This document shows positions 21,058 through 30,955 of a stretch of 64,000 bases of DNA, one piece after another; within the stretch, counting starts at the first letter, position 1, and each line of letters starts with the position of its first letter. A program made the translations under genes and the position numbers. Where the stretch lies: NCBI GenBank assembly GCA_050290065.1, contig JBNKGY010000001.1, positions 16,103 to 80,102 on the forward strand. Direction: 5' to 3'. Under the pieces are notes generated by a model that did not search any database, was not told the DNA's origin, and worked only from the letters and a program-made list of their open reading frames with translations. This DNA comes from Marinilabiliaceae bacterium. GTDB taxonomy: Bacteria; Bacteroidota; Bacteroidia; Bacteroidales; Marinilabiliaceae.

Positions 21058-21206
21058 TGTCTTTTATCTTTTCCGTTCTACCAATCGTTAAGTTATTTTT
21101 TTTTGAGAATTGATTTTTCAACAATTTATAAACAAAAAAAGAAACCTATTATTAATAAACCCGTAACAAGTGGGAAGGAGAACAATTAATTTTATTGGAT
21201 AGTCTT

Positions 21207-21719
21207 ATGAAGAAAATATTAATATTTTTGTTTTTTTTGCTGGTTGTACCCAAAATTGGTTTTGGACAGGTTGAAAAGTATAAATCAGTGTTTACTTTAA
21301 ACTTTATTCGTTATATTGGCTGGCCGGAAGAGGCAAAACAAGGTGATTTTGTTATTGGAGTACTTAAAGAACCAGCCATTGCAGATTGGTTAGTTAAGCA
21401 ATCTGGAGGAAAAAAATTCGGGTATCAGAATGTTGTGATCAAAGAATTTAAGTCGGTAGAAGATGTTACAGATTGTCAGGTTTTATATATTTCATCGTAT
21501 ATTAACTTTTCCAGACATTCAGAAACAATATTAAGTAAATTGGGGAAAAGCTCATTAGTAATTACAGAAACAGAGGGTGCAACTAAACGTGGTGCTGTAA
21601 TTAATTTTGTAGTCAGAGAAAATAACCTGATGTTTGAAGTCCATGAAGCAAATGCTCAAAAACTTGGTTTAAGCATTAGTTCAAAATTATCAAATATGGC
21701 TGCGGCTATTAAGAAATAA
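21207..21719 (+). CDS. YfiR/HmsC-family (DUF4154-like) periplasmic protein
   Basis: Signal peptide; K..F.LNF.RYI.WP, F.IGV, CQVLYI, INFV......FEV....A...GLSISSKL. Confidence 0.8.
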   Translation: MKKILIFLFFLLVVPKIGFGQVEKYKSVFTLNFIRYIGWPEEAKQGDFVIGVLKEPAIADWLVKQSGGKKFGYQNVVIKEFKSVEDVTDCQVLYISSYINFSRHSETILSKLGKSSLVITETEGATKRGAVINFVVRENNLMFEVHEANAQKLGLSISSKLSNMAAAIKK

Positions 21720-21735
21720 TACTAAGTAAAGATCT

Positions 21736-23430
21736 ATGAAAATTAAATTAAACATTGCACAAAAGTTATTAGCTGGATTTGGATTAATATTATTTACAAT
21801 ACTAGTAAATGGAATTTCGACCTATTTTACTTTACATAACAGTAGATCACTAAGTAATAAGATTACTGGTGTTTATAGCCCTTCAGAGCAAAATATTACA
21901 CATTATAAGGATCTGATTAATAGTTCAAAAACACTGATGAAAAGTTGGGTTTTTGTTGATCGTCAACCAGGTACTGCTGATAAGGTTAGATTAGAAAATT
22001 TAATTTCAGAGGAATATCCTAAATTAGTTGAAGGATTAAATAAAATAAAAGTGAATTGGTCACAGAAAGATCAGGATACTTTTGATTTGGTAGTGCATAA
22101 AACAGATTCTCTTTTTGTTAAAGAACGATATGTAATGTCAAGTCTTAATTCCTTCGAGGCATATGATGATGTGATGGTAATTTTTGAGGTTGAGCCGATG
22201 GTTCAGGAAGATGGAGAAATCATAAACCTCGGTAATGAAATTATTAATGATTTAACCGTTCTTGGTGATAAATTTAATAAGCAAAATTCAGATTCACTTC
22301 AAGAAATGGATGATTCCTTTGGTTGGTTCAACGGATTTGTAGTTATCATGGTTATTGTTCTGGTTTGTATTTCAGTGTTAATAGCATATGTATTATATAA
22401 TAGTATTGTAAAGCCTTTAAATAAGGGTGTTACATTTGCACAAACCATTGGTAATGGTGATTTAACGGTAGAATTGGATATCAATCAGGAAGATGAGATT
22501 GGGTTGTTGGCTAAGGCATTAAATACAATGGCATCTAATTTAAAGGGAATTGTAATTTCTATTAAAGAAAATGCAAACGACTTAGTTAGCAGTGGACAAA
22601 ATGTTAAAAGTAGCTCATTGCAACTATCAAAAGGTTCAGCAGACCAGGCAGCATCAGCCGAAGAAGTTTCAACATCAATTGAAGAAATGGTTGCTAATAT
22701 TGATCAGAATACTGATAATGCTGTCCAAACAGAAACCATTACTGTGGAAACCGCAAAAGATGTGAATGTGGCTGATAAATTATCTTCAGAGGCTGCCTCT
22801 TCAATGAAGAGTGTGGCTGAAAAAATCACTATTATCGGAGATATTGCTTTTCAAACTAATATTCTAGCTTTAAATGCTGCTGTTGAGGCAGCTAGAGCAG
22901 GAGAACATGGTAGAGGTTTTTCTGTAGTTGCAGCTGAAGTGCGTAAATTGGCAGAAAGAAGTAAAGTAGCTGCAGATGAAATACATAGCTTAGTAAATGG
23001 TGGTTTAAAAGTTTCTCAAGAGGCAGGAGAGAAATCAAGGTTATTAGTACCTGATATAGAAAAAACAACCCAATTAATAAAAGAAATATCAGCAGCAAGT
23101 CTTGAACAAAAGACTGGAGCAGAGCAAATTAATATGGCAATGCAGCAGTTAAATTTAATTACTCAAGAAAATGCCTCTTCTTCTGATGAACTTACACAAA
23201 GTGCAGAACAATTATCTGAATTAGCAGATCGATTAAAAGAAGCAGTAAGCTTCTTTAATATTGGAGCTGAAGAAGAATTTATTAGTACAAAAGAAAGCGA
23301 AGAAGAAGATAAGGTAATCGATAAAAAAAACGAAGAGAAATCAAAAGAATCCAAAAAGGCTAGTTTTTCTTCAAAACGAAGTGATATTATAAATCTTGAT
23401 AAGGATTTTGATAACTATGAAAAATTTTAA
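21736..23430 (+). CDS. mcp: Methyl-accepting chemotaxis protein (2 TM, periplasmic helical sensor, HAMP, 34H-like signalling domain, C-terminal pentapeptide)
   Basis: [40 protein letters not shown]; HAMP GDLT..DEIG.L..A.N.M; ends NYEKF. Confidence 0.96.
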
Positions 23431-23448
23431 TCAAAGTAATTTAAAGTT

Positions 23449-23760
23449 ATGGATGTACCATTTTCGGTTGATATAAAAAATAATAAAGACCTGATTACAA
23501 TTCTTGTATCTGGTGAGTTAATTATCAATCATATTCAAAAAATCAAATCTGTATTTTTAGAATCTTTGGACTTTTCCAAAAACCTGAGTATAAAAGTTAC
23601 AAACCCTACATCTATTGATATTACCTTTATTCAATTGTTATGCTCCATTAAAAAGGCATTTACAGATAAGGGGTTTGAATTTAATTTAGAAGGTACCTTT
23701 AGTGAAGATGTGTACAGTTTAGTATCAAATGCAGGATTTAACGATCTATTTAAACTATAG
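23449..23760 (+). CDS. STAS (anti-sigma-antagonist-like) protein
   Basis: VSGELII, SIDITFIQLL; sits at the STAS position typical of F8-like che operons. Confidence 0.75.
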   Translation: MDVPFSVDIKNNKDLITILVSGELIINHIQKIKSVFLESLDFSKNLSIKVTNPTSIDITFIQLLCSIKKAFTDKGFEFNLEGTFSEDVYSLVSNAGFNDLFKL

Positions 23761-23779
23761 AAATTAATTTTAACAAATT

Positions 23780-24145
23780 ATGGCTAAAACAGTTCTTATT
23801 GTTGACGATTCAGAAAGCATCAGGGAAGTAGTAAACTTTACCCTACAAAACGAAGGATATAACGTTTTGGTTGGCGTTGATGGTGAAGACGCTTTACAAT
23901 TCCTTGATGGTAGAAGTATCGATATTATTATTACTGACCTTCATATGCCGAACTTAGACGGATTAGGACTAATTCGTAAAGTTAGAGAAATTGAGGAGTA
24001 TAAGCATATCCCAATATTGTTTTTAACAACTGAATCTCAGGCAGGAAAAAAAATGGAGGCTAAACAAGCAGGGGCAACAGGTTGGATTATTAAACCTTTT
24101 GTTCCGGCAAAATTGCTTAGTGCTATTTCAAGAGTATTGAGATGA
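23780..24145 (+). CDS. cheY: CheY response regulator
   Basis: LIVDDSESIR, IITDLHMPNLDG, FLTTES, WIIKPF. Confidence 0.92.
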   Translation: MAKTVLIVDDSESIREVVNFTLQNEGYNVLVGVDGEDALQFLDGRSIDIIITDLHMPNLDGLGLIRKVREIEEYKHIPILFLTTESQAGKKMEAKQAGATGWIIKPFVPAKLLSAISRVLR

Positions 24146-24537
24146 TGGAGGAAATAAAGAAGTCTTTTATTAAAGAATCAATAAAAGATTTGGAACAAAT
24201 AGAATGCTCTCTGGACTTTAGTGAAGGAGTAAATGTTGATCAAAGTCTTATTGAGAAGGTTTTCACAACTACACATAACATTAAAGGAACAGCTCCAATG
24301 TTGGGTATTGATAATTTAGATCATATTGTCAAACCTATGGAATTGGTTTATGGAGAACTTCGTAATGGAAAACTTCTTTATTCCGAGGATATTGTTATAA
24401 ATACAAAAACACTAATTCCCGTTATAAAGTCGGAATTATGTACTAATCAACAACATACAATTGACTCAAAAGACGTTAACCAATCGTTACGTTTTTTTGA
24501 TTCTCTAATAGCAAAAAAAATGCATAAGCATGATTGA
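24142..24537 (+). CDS. Stand-alone Hpt protein resembling the CheA P1 domain
   Basis: F..ES..DL..IE, VF...HNIKGTAPMLG aligns with IFRAMHSLKGGGAMFG of the adjacent CheA. Confidence 0.75.
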   Translation: MMEEIKKSFIKESIKDLEQIECSLDFSEGVNVDQSLIEKVFTTTHNIKGTAPMLGIDNLDHIVKPMELVYGELRNGKLLYSEDIVINTKTLIPVIKSELCTNQQHTIDSKDVNQSLRFFDSLIAKKMHKHD

Positions 24538-26560
24538 TAAATTTCGAGCAAAATTTGTTGAAGAATCATTAGATAATATCCATGACTTAGAAGAAGCACT
24601 ACTTCTCTTGGAGAAGGATAAATCTGACAAAGAAATAATTGAACGAATATTTAGGGCTATGCACTCTTTAAAGGGTGGAGGTGCGATGTTCGGATTTAAT
24701 GATTTAAGTGAGTTTACGCATCATTTAGAAACTGTATTTGATTGGGTAAGAAATGATAAACTTTCAGTTACAGATGATCTAATATCATTAACCTTTAATG
24801 CAATAGATCAAATTAAAAAATTTTTGGAGGTAGGTGATATTACTGATGAAAGTGAAAAAAGAGAGCTTGAAAAATTTACACAACAAATTCAACAATTTGT
24901 TACTAAACCTTCAGGTCAGGTTACACAAACCGAAGATTCTACTAAAGATGAGTTAAGTTTAGATGATGAAACAAAAACTTATTTCATTCGGATTATGCCA
25001 TTTAATAATATCTTATTAAACGGTACTAATCCATTATTTTTATTAGATGACCTTCATGCGCTTGGTCAGGCATGTGTTATGCCGTGTACAGATAAGGTTC
25101 CATCTCTGGATACGCTTAATCCTGAGGATTGTTATGTTGCATGGGATGTTTTATTAAATACATCTGAACCAATTAACGAAATTCAGGATGTATTTATTTT
25201 TGTTGAAGACGAATGTGAACTTCAGGTTGTGGAAGTATCACCTGGTAATATATTGGAACATCCATTAATGGTTGAGTTAATCAATAAAGCAAAGAGTGGA
25301 GAACAAAGATTAACAGCCGATATTTTAAAAGGAATATCTTGGACAGGAGAAAAAAAGAAAGAAGAATCAGCTGATAAGAAAAAAATTCAACTTAAAGAAC
25401 ATAAAATATCTAGTATTCGTGTTTCATCAACAAAGATAGATGAGTTGGTAAATCTTGTTAGTGAACTTGTAACCATTCAAGCTCAGCTAAACCTATATGC
25501 AGAAAACAGTGGTGATGCTCAGTTGATTGGTCTTTCTGAAAATATTCAAAAACTTACTCGTCAGTTACGGGATAATGCCTTTGAAATAAGCTTAATTCCA
25601 ATACAAAACGACTTGATGAGATTTCAACGTCTTGTAAGAGATCTATCAAAGGAATTGTCAAAGGAAATAGACTTCATTATTGAGGGTGGTGATATCGAAT
25701 TAGATAAAAATATTATTGAACACCTTACTGATCCATTGTTACATATGATCCGAAATTGTGTAGATCATGGTATCGAACTTCCGGAAGAAAGGATTAAAAA
25801 GGGAAAATCACCGAAAGGGACTATCATTTTTAAAGCATATTACGAAGGAGCAAGTGTCATTATTAAGGTGATAGATGATGGAAAAGGAATTGATTCAAAC
25901 GTTATCCTAAAAAAAGCTATTTCAAAAGGATTGGTTGATGATGGAATTGAATTGAATAAGAAGGAAATATTCGATCTTGTTTTTATGAGTGGCTTTTCCA
26001 CAAAAGAAAATGTGTCTGATATTTCAGGGCGTGGTGTTGGAATGGATGTGGTTAAAAGAAAGATTGGTGAAATTCGAGGTGAAGTATCAATTGATTCTGA
26101 ACCTGATAAGGGAACAACAGTTACTCTTGAATTGCCATTAACACTTTCTATAATTGATGGATTGTTGGTAACAATTGCTGACATCCAGTATGTAATTCCA
26201 ATTTCCGCTATTGAAAAGATTTTTCCACTGGAAGTTGAAGATAAGACAAAGATATTTAATAATATAATTACAATAAATAACGAACAATTTCCTGTAATTA
26301 GTCTTAGAGAAATATTTAAAGAAGATAGGAAGGAAGATAAAGAACATGTAATCCAGGTTAAATTTGAGGATAAAAAAGTGGGATTAATTGTTGATGAAGT
26401 AATTGGTGAATTTCAAACCGTTGTAAAACCCCTTGGAAGATTACTAAATGATCAGGAAGTGATTTCAGGGGCATCAATTATGGGTGATGGAACGATATCT
26501 ATGGTTATTGATTCCAATCGATTAATTCATCATCACTGGGTACAAAAATTACATAAATAG
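24530..26560 (+). CDS. cheA: Chemotaxis histidine kinase CheA
   Basis: P1 MHSLKG, P3 SIRV...KIDELVNLVSELV, P4 HMIRNCVDHGIE/DDGKG/GFST/SGRGVGMDVVK, P5 CheW-like domain. Confidence 0.96.
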   Translation: MIDKFRAKFVEESLDNIHDLEEALLLLEKDKSDKEIIERIFRAMHSLKGGGAMFGFNDLSEFTHHLETVFDWVRNDKLSVTDDLISLTFNAIDQIKKFLEVGDITDESEKRELEKFTQQIQQFVTKPSGQVTQTEDSTKDELSLDDETKTYFIRIMPFNNILLNGTNPLFLLDDLHALGQACVMPCTDKVPSLDTLNPEDCYVAWDVLLNTSEPINEIQDVFIFVEDECELQVVEVSPGNILEHPLMVELINKAKSGEQRLTADILKGISWTGEKKKEESADKKKIQLKEHKISSIRVSSTKIDELVNLVSELVTIQAQLNLYAENSGDAQLIGLSENIQKLTRQLRDNAFEISLIPIQNDLMRFQRLVRDLSKELSKEIDFIIEGGDIELDKNIIEHLTDPLLHMIRNCVDHGIELPEERIKKGKSPKGTIIFKAYYEGASVIIKVIDDGKGIDSNVILKKAISKGLVDDGIELNKKEIFDLVFMSGFSTKENVSDISGRGVGMDVVKRKIGEIRGEVSIDSEPDKGTTVTLELPLTLSIIDGLLVTIADIQYVIPISAIEKIFPLEVEDKTKIFNNIITINNEQFPVISLREIFKEDRKEDKEHVIQVKFEDKKVGLIVDEVIGEFQTVVKPLGRLLNDQEVISGASIMGDGTISMVIDSNRLIHHHWVQKLHK

Positions 26561-26569
26561 GTGTAAATT

Positions 26570-27028
26570 ATGGAAGGCGATTTTAAAACATTAATATCCT
26601 TTAGCTTGGGTGATCAAACATTTGCGTTTGATAGTCTTAAAGTGCGAAATATATTACCATATGAAGGGACGGCTACAAAAGTTCCAAATTCAAAGGATTT
26701 TATTTTGGGTGTATTCAATTTACACGGTAATATTGTTCCTATTACTGATTTGCGAGCAATAATGAAGTTAGAGCAAGTTGATTACACAAAAGATACCTCA
26801 ATTATTGTTGTATCTCCGGAAGATAAATTAGAATCACAATTTGGAATTGTTGTTGATCTGGTAAAAGAAGTTTTTGAAGTTCAGTTAGATAAAATTGAGT
26901 CATCATCATTTCAGAAAGGAATGGGGCTTATTGAAACATTTGAGGGAACAATAAGGGAAAAAGATGAATTTATACATCTCATTGATTTAATGCACGTTAT
27001 TTCGCAAATTGAAAGTAAAAAAATTTAG
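26570..27028 (+). CDS. cheW: CheW coupling protein
   Basis: F.LG...FA, T.VPN...FILGVFNLHGNIVPITDLR, GIVVD.V.EV. Confidence 0.9.
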   Translation: MEGDFKTLISFSLGDQTFAFDSLKVRNILPYEGTATKVPNSKDFILGVFNLHGNIVPITDLRAIMKLEQVDYTKDTSIIVVSPEDKLESQFGIVVDLVKEVFEVQLDKIESSSFQKGMGLIETFEGTIREKDEFIHLIDLMHVISQIESKKI

Positions 27029-27030
27029 TA

Positions 27031-27510
27031 ATGGAAGAAGCAAACAATTCATATCTTTCTTTTAAAGTTGGAACTGAAACATTTGCTGTGCATGTAAGCA
27101 AAGTAAATGAGATACGTGAATATGAAAAACCACGTAAGGTGCCTGAGGCGATGTCGTTCATGAAAGGTGTTATTGATCATCGAGAGGAAGTCGTACCAGT
27201 TATAGATACAGGAATTAAGTTTGGACTAAATCCGGTAGAAATAACTCCACAAACCTGCATTATCGTTATAGATGTATTAAAAAAAGATACAAATTCTGTA
27301 TTTAAAGTAGGCATATTGACTGATGCCGTAACGGATGTATTTGAATCAGAGGATAGCAATTTTAAAAAAATTGAACGTGATTATACACCAAATTACATTC
27401 AAGCTACCTATAAATTGAATGATAATTTCTATTTGATACTAAATTCTGATGAAGTATTTAGTTTAAATGAAATTGTTGGAATGAGTGAAGCAATACAAGA
27501 AATAAAGTAA
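27031..27510 (+). CDS. cheW: Second CheW coupling protein
   Basis: YLSFKVG.E.FAV.V.KV.EI, VP....FMKGVI..R.EVVPVID, VGILTDAV.DV. Confidence 0.9.
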   Translation: MEEANNSYLSFKVGTETFAVHVSKVNEIREYEKPRKVPEAMSFMKGVIDHREEVVPVIDTGIKFGLNPVEITPQTCIIVIDVLKKDTNSVFKVGILTDAVTDVFESEDSNFKKIERDYTPNYIQATYKLNDNFYLILNSDEVFSLNEIVGMSEAIQEIK

Positions 27511-27513
27511 CGA

Positions 27514-28383
27514 GTGGAAAAGGCCAACACATACTCAAAGGATTTAGATTGCTTTAAGGCTGAATTATCTACCAAAGATTTTGAAGCTTTTAGTCAATTT
27601 ATTTATTCTGAGTTTGGTATTAAAATGCCACCTGTAAAAAGAATAATGTTGCAAGGGCGTTTACTGAAAAGGATAAGAAATTTAAATATGAATTCCTATT
27701 CAGAGTATAAAGACTATTTGTTCAGTAAAGAGGGACAGAAGGAAGAGATATTTAATTTTTTGAATGTTGTAACCACTAATAAAACTGATTTTTTTAGAGA
27801 ACCAATACATTTTGACTATTTAAAGAGCTCTGTTTTGCCGGAATTTCTTTCAAAAGATAATAGAGAACCTTTTAAAATTTGGAGTGCAGGTTGTTCAAGT
27901 GGTGAAGAACTGTATACCCTAGCTATTACTCTGAATGAATTTAAAAGTATAAATGTAGGCTTTAATTATTCCATGTTAGGGACTGATATTTCTCAAAATG
28001 TATTATCAAAAGCAGCAAAAGGTATCTATCCACTAAATAAGGTGGATATTATTCCAATAGATTTAAAAAAGAAGTATTTATTGAAAAGCAAGGATGCCAA
28101 CAACCAAACTGTAAAGGTACGGCCAGAGCTTCAGCGAAATTTGAATTTAAAATATCTGAATCTTATGGATTCCAGTTATTCAGCTATAAATGAAAAATTT
28201 GACGCAATTTTTTGTAGAAATGTATTAATATATTTCGACCGGGCGACACAGGAAAGTGTGATTAATAAATTAAGTTCTTATTTAAAGCCAGGAGGATATT
28301 TTTTTATAGGACATTCTGAATCGTTAACAGGAATGAATGTTCCACTAGAACACATTAAACCAACTATTTTCAGAAAAAAATAA
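27514..28383 (+). CDS. cheR: CheR methyltransferase (chemotaxis type)
   Basis: TTNKTDFFRE..HF, IWSAGCSSGEE.Y, GTDIS, CRNVLIYFD, GHSESL. GTG start. Confidence 0.95.
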   Translation: MEKANTYSKDLDCFKAELSTKDFEAFSQFIYSEFGIKMPPVKRIMLQGRLLKRIRNLNMNSYSEYKDYLFSKEGQKEEIFNFLNVVTTNKTDFFREPIHFDYLKSSVLPEFLSKDNREPFKIWSAGCSSGEELYTLAITLNEFKSINVGFNYSMLGTDISQNVLSKAAKGIYPLNKVDIIPIDLKKKYLLKSKDANNQTVKVRPELQRNLNLKYLNLMDSSYSAINEKFDAIFCRNVLIYFDRATQESVINKLSSYLKPGGYFFIGHSESLTGMNVPLEHIKPTIFRKK

Positions 28384-28400
28384 AGCACAAAAAGAGAACC

Positions 28401-29303
28401 ATGAATAATTTATCAGACAGACAATTACTTAAGGAGCTTAGACAAAGGCTTGAACATGGTAAGAATAGTGAGAAGGAAATTAAGGAATTGACTCACGAAT
28501 TACAAAGTGTGTCAAAAAAGCTTAAGGATTCAGAAGCACTTAAGAGTCATTTTATATCAAATATCTCAAATGAAATAGTAAATCCGTTTACTTCGATATT
28601 AGGACTGTCAAAGGCAATTCTATCTGTTGAAAAGCATGATTGGAAAAAGGTTGTGTCAATGGTAGCATTGATTCATTCAGAAGCATTCAACCTTGATTTT
28701 CAATTGAAGAATATTTTTGTGGCCGCTAAAATTGAAGCAGGTGAAATAGCCCCTAATATTGCTAAGGTTAATATTAGAAGCTTATTACAAACGGTTGTTG
28801 ACTCTTTTAATATAATTTCCCGTAAAATGGGAATTTCAATTGATATTCAATTTAATATTGAACATGGTTTTGGAAAGAATTTTTACTTTAAAACTGATTC
28901 AGAAAAACTTAAGCTTATCCTTAGTAACCTTATTAATAATGCATTAAAATATAGTTATAAAGATAGTAAGGTAATTATTTCAATATGGCTGGATGATGAA
29001 GATGTTTTGAAAATCTCTGTTCAAGATTATGGAACCGGAATTTCTGAAAAAAATCAGAAAACAATATTTGAACGATTTAAAAGATTAGATACCGGTATCA
29101 ATTCAATAAATCGTGGTCATGGTCTTGGTCTTTCAATTACAAAAGCATTATTGGATACATTGAGTGGAGATATTGAAATAGCGAGTCAAAAAGGTGAAGG
29201 ATCAACCTTTACTATAAGTGTGCCGGAGGCCAAAAATATTGTGGACGGATTTAGTGGAGAAGGAAATGATATATTCTTTGATGAAGAGGACGAGATTTTT
29301 TAA
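28401..29303 (+). CDS. Sensorless HisKA-HATPase kinase-like protein lacking the phospho-acceptor His
   Basis: H-box reads FISNISNEIVNP (N57 in place of H); N box NLINNALKYS, G1 DYGTGI, F box IFERF and G2 GHGLGL are intact. Confidence 0.8.
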   Translation: MNNLSDRQLLKELRQRLEHGKNSEKEIKELTHELQSVSKKLKDSEALKSHFISNISNEIVNPFTSILGLSKAILSVEKHDWKKVVSMVALIHSEAFNLDFQLKNIFVAAKIEAGEIAPNIAKVNIRSLLQTVVDSFNIISRKMGISIDIQFNIEHGFGKNFYFKTDSEKLKLILSNLINNALKYSYKDSKVIISIWLDDEDVLKISVQDYGTGISEKNQKTIFERFKRLDTGINSINRGHGLGLSITKALLDTLSGDIEIASQKGEGSTFTISVPEAKNIVDGFSGEGNDIFFDEEDEIF

Positions 29304-29313
29304 TGGTGAATAG

Positions 29314-29784
29314 ATGAATCAATATTTACAACATTTTTTATATCCATCCTCTCTTTTCGTCAGCAAAGAACCTTTTTTGGTTAAAACCATATTAGGCTCG
29401 TGTGTTGCAATATGTTTATGGGATTCACGATTGAAAATAGGAGGTATTAATCATTACATGCTACCACATTGGAATGGTAATGATTTAGCTTCGCCAAAAT
29501 ATGGAAATATTGCAATAGACAAGCTAATTGATAAATTGCTTTTTCATGGATCAAGAACCGAAGATTTGCAAGCGAAAATATTTGGAGGTGGAGAATTAAT
29601 GCAAACAGGAAATTCAAGAACATTAATTGGAGAACGAAATATTCGTGTGGCCAGAATAATGCTTGAAGAAAAAAATATTCCAATTGTTGCTTCCAGTACA
29701 GGTGGAAAAAGAGGTCGAAAAATCATATTTTTTACCGATACTGGAGAAGTGAGACATAAATTATTGGATAAAAAGAACCCATAA
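29314..29784 (+). CDS. cheD: CheD chemoreceptor glutamine deamidase
   Basis: TILGSCVA, GGINHYMLP, KIFGGG, IGERN, GG..GRKI.F. Confidence 0.93.
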   Translation: MNQYLQHFLYPSSLFVSKEPFLVKTILGSCVAICLWDSRLKIGGINHYMLPHWNGNDLASPKYGNIAIDKLIDKLLFHGSRTEDLQAKIFGGGELMQTGNSRTLIGERNIRVARIMLEEKNIPIVASSTGGKRGRKIIFFTDTGEVRHKLLDKKNP

Positions 29785-29875
29785 ATGATAATTTGATTCT
29801 TAAATAAACTAAGCATCATTTTTTTTTATATATTTCTTATTAATAACATTCATTTTAATAAGATAACCTTGTACT

Positions 29876-30955
29876 ATGCGGATGAAAAAAATTCGGGTAT
29901 TAGTAGTTGATGATTCAGCTGTAGTTAGACAAAGCCTTTCAAGTATTTTAGGTTCGGACCCAGAAATAGAAGTGATGGGTACAGCGGCTGACCCTATTAT
30001 TGCTGTAAAAAAGATTATGAAGGAGATACCTGACGTTATTACGTTAGATATCGAAATGCCAAGAATGGATGGGTTAACATTCTTGCGTAAAATTATGTCA
30101 CAACACCCAATTCCTGTTGTGATTATCTCATCACTTACAAGCGAAGGTACAGAGGTAGCGATGAAAGCACTTGAGTATGGTGCTGCCGAAATTATTGGTA
30201 AACCGGCGATGAATGCCGCTAAATTTATTAATGAATCAAAGATTGTGATCTGCGATGCTGTTAAAGCAGCAGCGCATGTGAAATTATCGAGAAAGAAAAT
30301 TAAAGTACCGCCTACCAATATAGAAGTAAAACCTAAATATAGTGCTGACGTTATTCTTGAAAAAGCTTCCGTGTCAAATAGAATATCGGTAACAGATAAA
30401 GTTATTGTATTAGGAGCTTCAACAGGAGGAACTGAAGCCATCAGATCCTTTCTTAAAAATCTACCCGCAAAAATGCCTGGAATTGCAATTGTTCAGCATA
30501 TGCCTGAAGGATTCACAAGATCATTTGCTAACAGTTTAAATAACATCTGTAATTTAGAAGTTAAGGAGGCAGAAAATGGCGATAAACTTTATCAAGGTAG
30601 AGTTCTTATTGCGCCGGGAAATTACCATATGCTGTTAAAAAGAGTAGGTAAAGAGTATTTTGTGGAGGTAAAAGAAGGACCTTTGGTAAACAGGCATCGT
30701 CCGTCTGTGGATGTGCTATTTAGAAGTGCTTCAAGATATGCAGGTAATAATGCAATGGGTATTTTGTTGACCGGAATGGGAAATGATGGTGCAAAGGGGT
30801 TGTTGGAACTTAAGGAATCAGGTGCAGAAACAATAGCCCAGGATGAACAAAGTTCTGTTGTTTATGGTATGCCAAAGGAAGCAGCAAAACTTGGAGCTGC
30901 CAATCATATTTTAGGATTAGAGCAGATTGCTCCTTTCCTAATAAAGTCTCTTTAA
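29876..30955 (+). CDS. cheB: CheB methylesterase (REC plus esterase)
   Basis: [18 protein letters not shown]; triad motifs [19 protein letters not shown]. Confidence 0.96.

Follow-up and report, generated by a model that had tools for sequence, protein, structure and literature searches.

A free-standing CheA P1-type Hpt protein encoded beside a complete CheA in a conserved chemosensory operon of the Marinilabiliaceae

In a chemosensory operon of a Marinilabiliaceae bacterium, a short gene between cheY and cheA encodes a protein that resembles the phospho-accepting P1 (Hpt) domain of CheA, and further along the same operon lies a kinase-like protein, here called HKx, that lacks the usual acceptor histidine. 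This arrangement raises the question of what a separate P1 does beside a CheA, and from where it would receive its phosphate. The sequence-only reading of this DNA offered two answers, namely that Hpt and HKx might be the halves of a split histidine kinase, or that Hpt might serve as a phosphate sink. By comparing orthologous loci, predicted structures and evolutionary rates, we find the gene product to be a diverged paralogue of the CheA P1 domain that stands free of CheA, and the evidence favours neither answer.

The operon (Table 1) is conserved in full across about 80 Marinilabiliaceae species genomes, with a conserved CheR/CheB-GAF-PP2C-SiaB/SiaC-ABC cassette downstream of it. Within the window (the whole 64-kb stretch of DNA that was analysed), a phmmer search of REC domains against all open reading frames found receiver domains in CheY and CheB only, and the only Hpt domains are the free Hpt and the P1 of CheA. 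A scan of promoters and terminators gave sites no more common than in shuffled sequence. The methyl-accepting chemotaxis protein (MCP) ends in NYEKF (last five codons, 23413-23427; DNYEKF in 57 of 62 loci), resembling the NWETF-type C-terminal pentapeptide that tethers CheR and CheB in other bacteria. The fast-evolving STAS protein (23449-23760) retains the motif D-x-T-F-I-Q-L, its Thr standing two residues past the Asp, unlike the position of the phosphorylated Ser in SpoIIAA-type proteins.

Table 1. Features of the chemosensory operon, and loci that lack hpt (window positions unless a locus is named)
Feature	Position	Strand	Basis or remark
Conserved operon: yfiR-like, mcp, STAS, cheY, hpt, cheA, cheW, cheW, cheR, HKx, cheD, cheB	21195..30955	+	Pfam
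cheY, single-domain response regulator	23780..24145	+	Pfam Response_reg, 95.3 bits
hpt, free-standing P1-type Hpt gene, 131 aa	24142..24537	+	Pfam, CheA P1 alignment, AF2 fold, orthologues, dN/dS
A8 homopolymer run inside hpt	24513..24520	+	DNA alignment with L005, L001 and L004
cheA, complete	24530..26560	+	Pfam Hpt, H-kinase_dim, HATPase_c, CheW
CheA P1	24530-24919	+	Within cheA
CheA conserved alpha/beta mid-domain, P3-P4-P5 after it	24920-25399	+	AF2 pLDDT 81.8
HKx, His-less HisKA-type kinase-like protein	28401..29303	+	Pfam HATPase_c, 91.5 bits; weak HisKA match
cheB, REC and methylesterase	29876..30955	+	Pfam
hpt-less: Saccharicrinis aurantiacus			cheY-cheA gap of 68 nt
hpt-less: two Thermophagus species			cheY-cheA gaps of 76 and 81 nt
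hpt-less: L059			Gap of 137 nt
hpt-less: L070			Gap of 129 nt
hpt-less: L077	L077:5962-6093		Gap of 130 nt; N-terminal remnant, first ~16 codons (MIEEIRNSFNEEALNN)
hpt-less: L058	L058:5759-6136		Gap of 376 nt; full-length, recognisable, stop-ridden Hpt pseudogene

That the short gene encodes a free-standing Hpt of the CheA P1 type with its histidine in place, and overlaps both neighbours by a few bases, had been read from the sequence and was borne out. The protein matches the Pfam Hpt family PF01627 at 32.1 bits (gathering score 24.6), aligns gap-free with the neighbouring CheA over its residues 1-96 (29% identity, E-value 3e-11) and also aligns with the solved CheA P1 domains 2ld6 and 1tqg. 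Its His45, in THNIKG (codon CAT, 24274-24276), belongs to an H-x-x-K-G motif on helix B and is in register with the phospho-histidine of CheA P1, as are the retained Lys48, Gly49 and Glu67 with their P1 equivalents. The AF2 model, built with a 69-sequence alignment (pLDDT 87.7), contains five predicted helices (residues 2-26, 34-53, 60-74, 82-100 and 110-129) that form a P1-type bundle of four helices and a fifth. CheA P1 domains are its best PDB matches, led by Salmonella CheA P1 (1i5n) at TM 0.78-0.80, and the P1-CheY complex 2lp4 and Rhodobacter sphaeroides CheA3 P1 (3kyi, TM 0.75) are also among the top matches. Hpt thus shares the five-helix fold of the E. coli/Salmonella (1i5n) and Thermotoga maritima (1tqg/2ld6) P1 domains and differs from them in being a separate protein of 131 residues instead of the N-terminal domain of CheA. 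We also considered the class of stand-alone phosphorelay Hpt proteins (HptB, Ypd1, AHP) and rejected it, given TM-scores of 0.36 for HptB (7c1i) and 0.38 for rice AHP (1yvi) and a 64-kb window that encodes neither a hybrid kinase nor a further receiver.

The hpt start codon (ATG, 24142-24144) and the cheY stop codon (TGA, 24143-24145) form an ATGA overlap of 4 nt, and the 3' end of hpt overlaps the start of cheA by 8 nt. Many species show the ATGA and have hpt abutting cheA; the 8-nt overlap is peculiar to the window genome, in which a run of A has eight bases against six in the three relatives aligned. The longer run turns the usual Hpt C-terminus ...KNA into ...KKMHKHD and thereby creates the overlap. 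Contigs from three metagenome data sets (runs X1-X3) reproduced the eight-base run and showed no indel. A metatranscriptome contig with 95-99% identity that crosses the cheY/hpt junction gives weak evidence that hpt is expressed in a close relative.

To trace the gene through the family, we assembled 80 loci from GTDB species genomes, anchored on HKx, and added eight long metagenome contigs anchored on hpt. Nearly all of the 80 loci are labelled Marinilabiliaceae (among them Saccharicrinis, Labilibacter, Plebeiibacterium, Carboxylicivirga, Breznakibacter, Marinilabilia, Anaerophaga, Thermophagus, Geofilum, Alkaliflexus, Alkalitalea and Natronoflexus), and gene order is identical across loci L001-L084 and the metagenome loci. 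When each locus was searched with an Hpt profile, a free Hpt lay between cheY and cheA in 66-67 of the 74 loci covering that junction and was missing from seven (Table 1). Public records name members of this family only as ‘Hpt domain-containing protein’, ‘hypothetical protein’ or fragments of CheA.

In a tree that included the resident P1 domains and outgroup P1 domains, free Hpts and resident P1s each group in a clade of their own (100/99 support each), with the resident P1s placed alongside the outgroups. This separation rules out a recent duplication of the neighbouring P1 within the family and points to a single origin of the free Hpt before the family radiated. Word-indexed protein searches recovered 11 and 35 family members, which is a sample and not a census. 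An exhaustive search with the Hpt profile returned, for the most part, P1 domains that belong to long CheA or ChpA proteins; 17 of its best 150 matches were short, 15 of which carry the Pro52 signature of the free Hpts and two resemble fragments of canonical P1. The second-best match to the profile, P0132 in the representatives library, is a protein of 4858 residues with 16 Hpt-like stretches, an extreme multi-Hpt architecture.

Sequence conservation within Hpt is concentrated at a small set of positions. His45 and Gly49 are invariant in all 69 sequences; across 62 loci, F9, H45, G49 and P52 do not vary at all, L17, M53, G55, E67 and T88 reach at least 96% conservation, and the remainder of the protein drifts. 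The 98% conserved Glu67 is the counterpart of a glutamate of CheA P1 (Glu67 in T. maritima, Glu70 in E. coli) which, according to Quezada et al. in 2005, reportedly hydrogen-bonds the phospho-histidine and is needed for phosphorylation from ATP. In the complex of R. sphaeroides CheA3P1 with CheY6, the receiver is bound by a pocket of I11, L14, Y15, N56, V59 and L60 together with His51 (PMC2817712). These six pocket residues correspond to Hpt positions 5, 8, 9, 50, 53 and 54, three of which are conserved (9 and 53, and less strictly 50), so that selection appears to have retained the histidine and part of a receiver-docking pocket. The near-His signature is GT[AG]PM[LVF]G in the free Hpts versus GGGAMFGF in the resident CheA P1, and position 64 is variable in Hpt versus an invariant His (in HHLE) in the resident P1. 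These consistent differences could mean that Hpt has another kinase or partner than P1 does. The catalytic setting of Hpt is not uniform within the family either, since one of its two major clades has Ser, Cys or Thr in place of Lys48 and a shorter fifth helix.

Where present, hpt is under purifying selection. Over 35 close pairs, dN/dS was 0.085-0.10 for Hpt, compared with 0.07 for CheA and 0.085 for CheW2, and only 0.010 for CheY and 0.011 for HKx, which are therefore far more strongly constrained. Taken with the invariant histidine in the orthologues, a dN/dS of about 0.09 places hpt far beyond a chance open reading frame. On a 62-taxon tree of fixed topology, Hpt nonetheless has the greatest tree length, at 33.5 changes per site versus 16.8 for CheA P1, 4.1 for HKx and 1.85 for CheY, making hpt the fastest-evolving gene of the operon at about twice the rate of the resident P1. 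The partner whose rate covaries best with that of Hpt is CheA P1 (rho 0.21, p 0.04 uncorrected, 62 taxa), a weak signal that does not separate the candidate roles of Hpt from one another. As for CheY, its sequence is 89-99% identical across the family with an invariant helix alpha1; for a protein this nearly invariant, in a family without known flagella, the output partner must be very conserved.

The loci without hpt have lost it more than once. Well-supported branches of the CheA tree force at least six independent losses, and hpt occurs on both sides of the root of that tree, which indicates that it has been retained since the common ancestor of the family. An apparent further loss at L061 proved to be an assembly gap (a run of N) and was discarded. 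The pseudogene in L058 and the remnant in L077 are snapshots of the gene in the course of being lost. In all seven hpt-less loci the CheA P1, HKx and the other operon genes are intact, and the P1 is unchanged. Rapid evolution, repeated loss and a pseudogene would also be expected if Hpt were a binding-only regulator (a competitor of P1 at the P4 domain, or a sequesterer of CheY) or a functionless duplicate on its way out. We regard this as quite improbable, given a His45 that is invariant in 69 sequences, the purifying selection on the gene and its retention on both sides of the CheA root.

The second protein in question, HKx, does lack the acceptor histidine, as the sequence-only reading had claimed. 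Alignment to canonical kinases places Asn57 (codon 28569-28571) at the H-box position, and all 85 HKx sequences share this Asn. HKx belongs to the HisKA plus HATPase_c class, closest to PhoR/WalK-type kinases, and not to the P3-P4-P5 class of CheA. Its DHp domain is its most conserved part (56 of 70 positions invariant), and the 85 sequences agree to 100% at H50, N57, E58 and N61 as well as in the N, G1, F and G2 boxes. The residue H50 (in KSHF, codon 28548-28550) lies seven residues, or two helical turns, before Asn57, at a place where canonical HisKA domains have Glu or Asp. The C-terminal tail (29244-29300) is acidic and aromatic (...GFSG.GNDIFFD..DEIF), with DEIF in 100% of the 85 sequences, and looks like a docking peptide. 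Judged from these sequence features, HKx may be a phosphatase-only enzyme, or its acceptor histidine may have moved to H50.

If Hpt and HKx were a split kinase, the ATP-binding domain of HKx would phosphorylate the free Hpt and so provide an input to CheY or CheB that is independent of the receptor array. This idea has several attractions: the ATP-binding boxes of HKx are fully kept while its own acceptor is gone, Hpt retains His45 and Glu67, Hpt is never found without HKx (66-67 genome loci and eight of eight metagenome contigs), and split CheA proteins have a precedent in CheA3/CheA4 of R. sphaeroides (PMC3591291, PMC2817712). The co-occurrence test that the sequence-only reading proposed fails in one direction, however. 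HKx is present in all 80 loci, which were anchored on it, and hpt is missing from seven of the 74 that could be scored; since HKx is universal in the operon, its constant presence beside Hpt says little, and the informative direction is the persistence of an unchanged HKx through at least six independent losses of hpt. The two genes also lie four genes apart, with hpt coupled instead to cheY and cheA, and they evolve at very different rates (HKx about eightfold slower by tree length), with a slightly negative rate covariation (rho -0.18, 62 taxa). Nor does the locus have the features that mark a split CheA, in which the kinase partner lacks a P1 of its own, the partner is a P3-P4-P5 core, and the two halves co-occur: here the P1 of the adjacent CheA is complete and nearly invariant, HKx is HisKA plus HATPase_c, and HKx is kept where hpt is lost. 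We know of no case in which a HisKA-class domain charges a P1-type Hpt. The split-kinase reading is thus unsupported and very unlikely. Equally slight, in our judgement, is the chance of its broader form, in which the HKx domain, with Asn in place of His, would use the free Hpt, or the CheA P1 where hpt has been lost, as an acceptor in trans.

The retained motif of HKx bears on the second proposal. The stretch E58-x-x-N61 corresponds to the E/D-x-x-T/N phosphatase motif of HisKA kinases. In the kinase CrdS, replacing the phospho-accepting histidine (H371A) abolishes kinase activity and hardly affects phosphatase activity, CrdA~P having a half-life of 2.6 min with the H371A protein, 0.7 min with the wild type and 53.5 min without enzyme, whereas N375A abolishes phosphatase activity, showing that the Asn is essential (PMC3510030). 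By analogy with CrdS, in which the His is nearly dispensable for this activity, and with its own E-x-x-N retained, HKx is plausibly a phosphatase dedicated to CheY~P or CheB~P. The premise on which the sink proposal was built, that the operon has no signal terminator, is weakened accordingly. As a pure sink, Hpt would not be charged by any kinase and would only take phosphate back from CheY~P, speeding termination in the absence of CheZ, CheC or CheX. Transfer from P1 to CheY can indeed run backwards, and R. sphaeroides makes use of such reversed phosphotransfer (PMC2924250); within Hpt, conservation is highest at receiver-pocket residues, and the dispensability of the gene would suit a tuning role. 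We nevertheless consider this reading unlikely: a stable His~P would need an outlet, and none is evident; a glutamate that P1 needs for phosphorylation from ATP is all but fixed in Hpt; and HKx, with its invariant E58-x-x-N61, is, on the analogy with CrdS, the better phosphatase candidate.

A further possibility is that Hpt relays phosphate received from CheA to a response regulator whose gene lies elsewhere in the genome, and so ties the chemosensory array to another output. The invariant differences from CheA P1 close to the histidine (Thr50 and Pro52) would suit a distinct docking partner, and ChpA of Pseudomonas aeruginosa, a multi-Hpt CheA homologue, assigns its Hpt domains to different receivers. 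As in the present operon, the kinase domain of ChpA is paired with more than a single P1-like acceptor; its extra Hpts are fused in one chain, unlike the separate gene found here. We rate such a shuttle as distinctly unlikely, because neither the 64-kb window nor the conserved downstream cassette encodes a further receiver, and the repeated loss of hpt with all else intact argues against an essential branch.

The donor that remains closest at hand is the neighbouring CheA, which is complete. Helices A and B of its P1 are nearly invariant (motif HSLKGGGAMFGF...HHLE). Residues 131-290, which occupy the place of P2, contain the invariant elements NGTN, DVFIFVE and C99, with pLDDT above 90; the best 50 Foldseek matches of this region are, at the nearest, weak ferredoxin-like or PII-like folds, and a solved P2 is not among them. 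With moderate confidence, and on grounds of sequence, predicted structure and analogy, we propose that Hpt is an accessory, diffusible P1 that is charged in trans by CheA and exchanges phosphate with CheY, CheB or both; donor and recipient are here what we infer. The gene would be co-translated with cheY and cheA, and the P4 domain of CheA would phosphorylate His45 of Hpt in competition with its own tethered P1. Phosphorylated Hpt would then exchange its phosphoryl group reversibly with the receivers of the operon, CheY and/or CheB, so that Hpt could serve as a diffusible shuttle or buffer of phosphate and adjust the pathway's gain or timing. Its status as an accessory and not a core component is suggested by the six or more losses, one caught as a pseudogene and one as a remnant, in which CheA P1 stayed unchanged. 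If the essential job can be done by CheA's own P1, this would explain both the fast evolution and the repeated loss of hpt.

Several known systems resemble parts of this arrangement. Garzon and Parkinson reportedly found in 1996 that P1, once set free from E. coli CheA, is phosphorylated in trans, supports signalling and can pass phosphate to CheY; that was a laboratory construct, whereas hpt occurs naturally and is conserved across a family of bacteria. Synechocystis PilL-N/PilL-C likewise has an Hpt-only open reading frame that adjoins a CheA-like kinase gene; that kinase lacks its own Hpt and the system is truly split, unlike the Marinilabiliaceae CheA, which keeps its own. The R. sphaeroides pair CheA3/CheA4 shares with our proposal a P1 located on another polypeptide than the kinase domain that charges it, and a P1 that matches the Hpt model in fold; there, P1 alone binds and phosphorylates receivers without a P2 (PMC3591291, PMC2817712). 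It differs in that the Marinilabiliaceae CheA is complete with its own P1 and nothing is split, the free Hpt has neither a P5 nor a phosphatase domain, the kinase partner once proposed (HKx) is of the HisKA class and not P3-P4-P5, and strict co-occurrence is absent. Split CheA proteins are known to be rare, numbering 11 of 481 in one survey as cited in PMC3591291.

Our literature searches found no described free-standing P1 beside a complete CheA, and no work on chemotaxis in the Marinilabiliaceae. To our knowledge, hardly any study has addressed the chemosensory pathways of Bacteroidota that lack flagella. The present result redirects attention to HKx, whose His-to-Asn replacement is the more constrained oddity of the operon. 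Were HKx after all to charge Hpt or P1, it would give CheY or CheB a second input of phosphate, independent of the receptor array, and would be the first cross-class split histidine kinase. With regard to Hpt itself, the operon is a natural version of the E. coli experiment in which P1 was liberated from CheA: in this family of gliding marine bacteria, a free P1 coexists with a complete CheA and is under selection family-wide, yet has been dropped at least six times. Natural controls exist in Anaerophaga, which has hpt, and its sister genus Thermophagus, which does not, and together they make a tractable system for the effect of a second, diffusible phospho-acceptor on the gain, timing and buffering of a CheA pathway.
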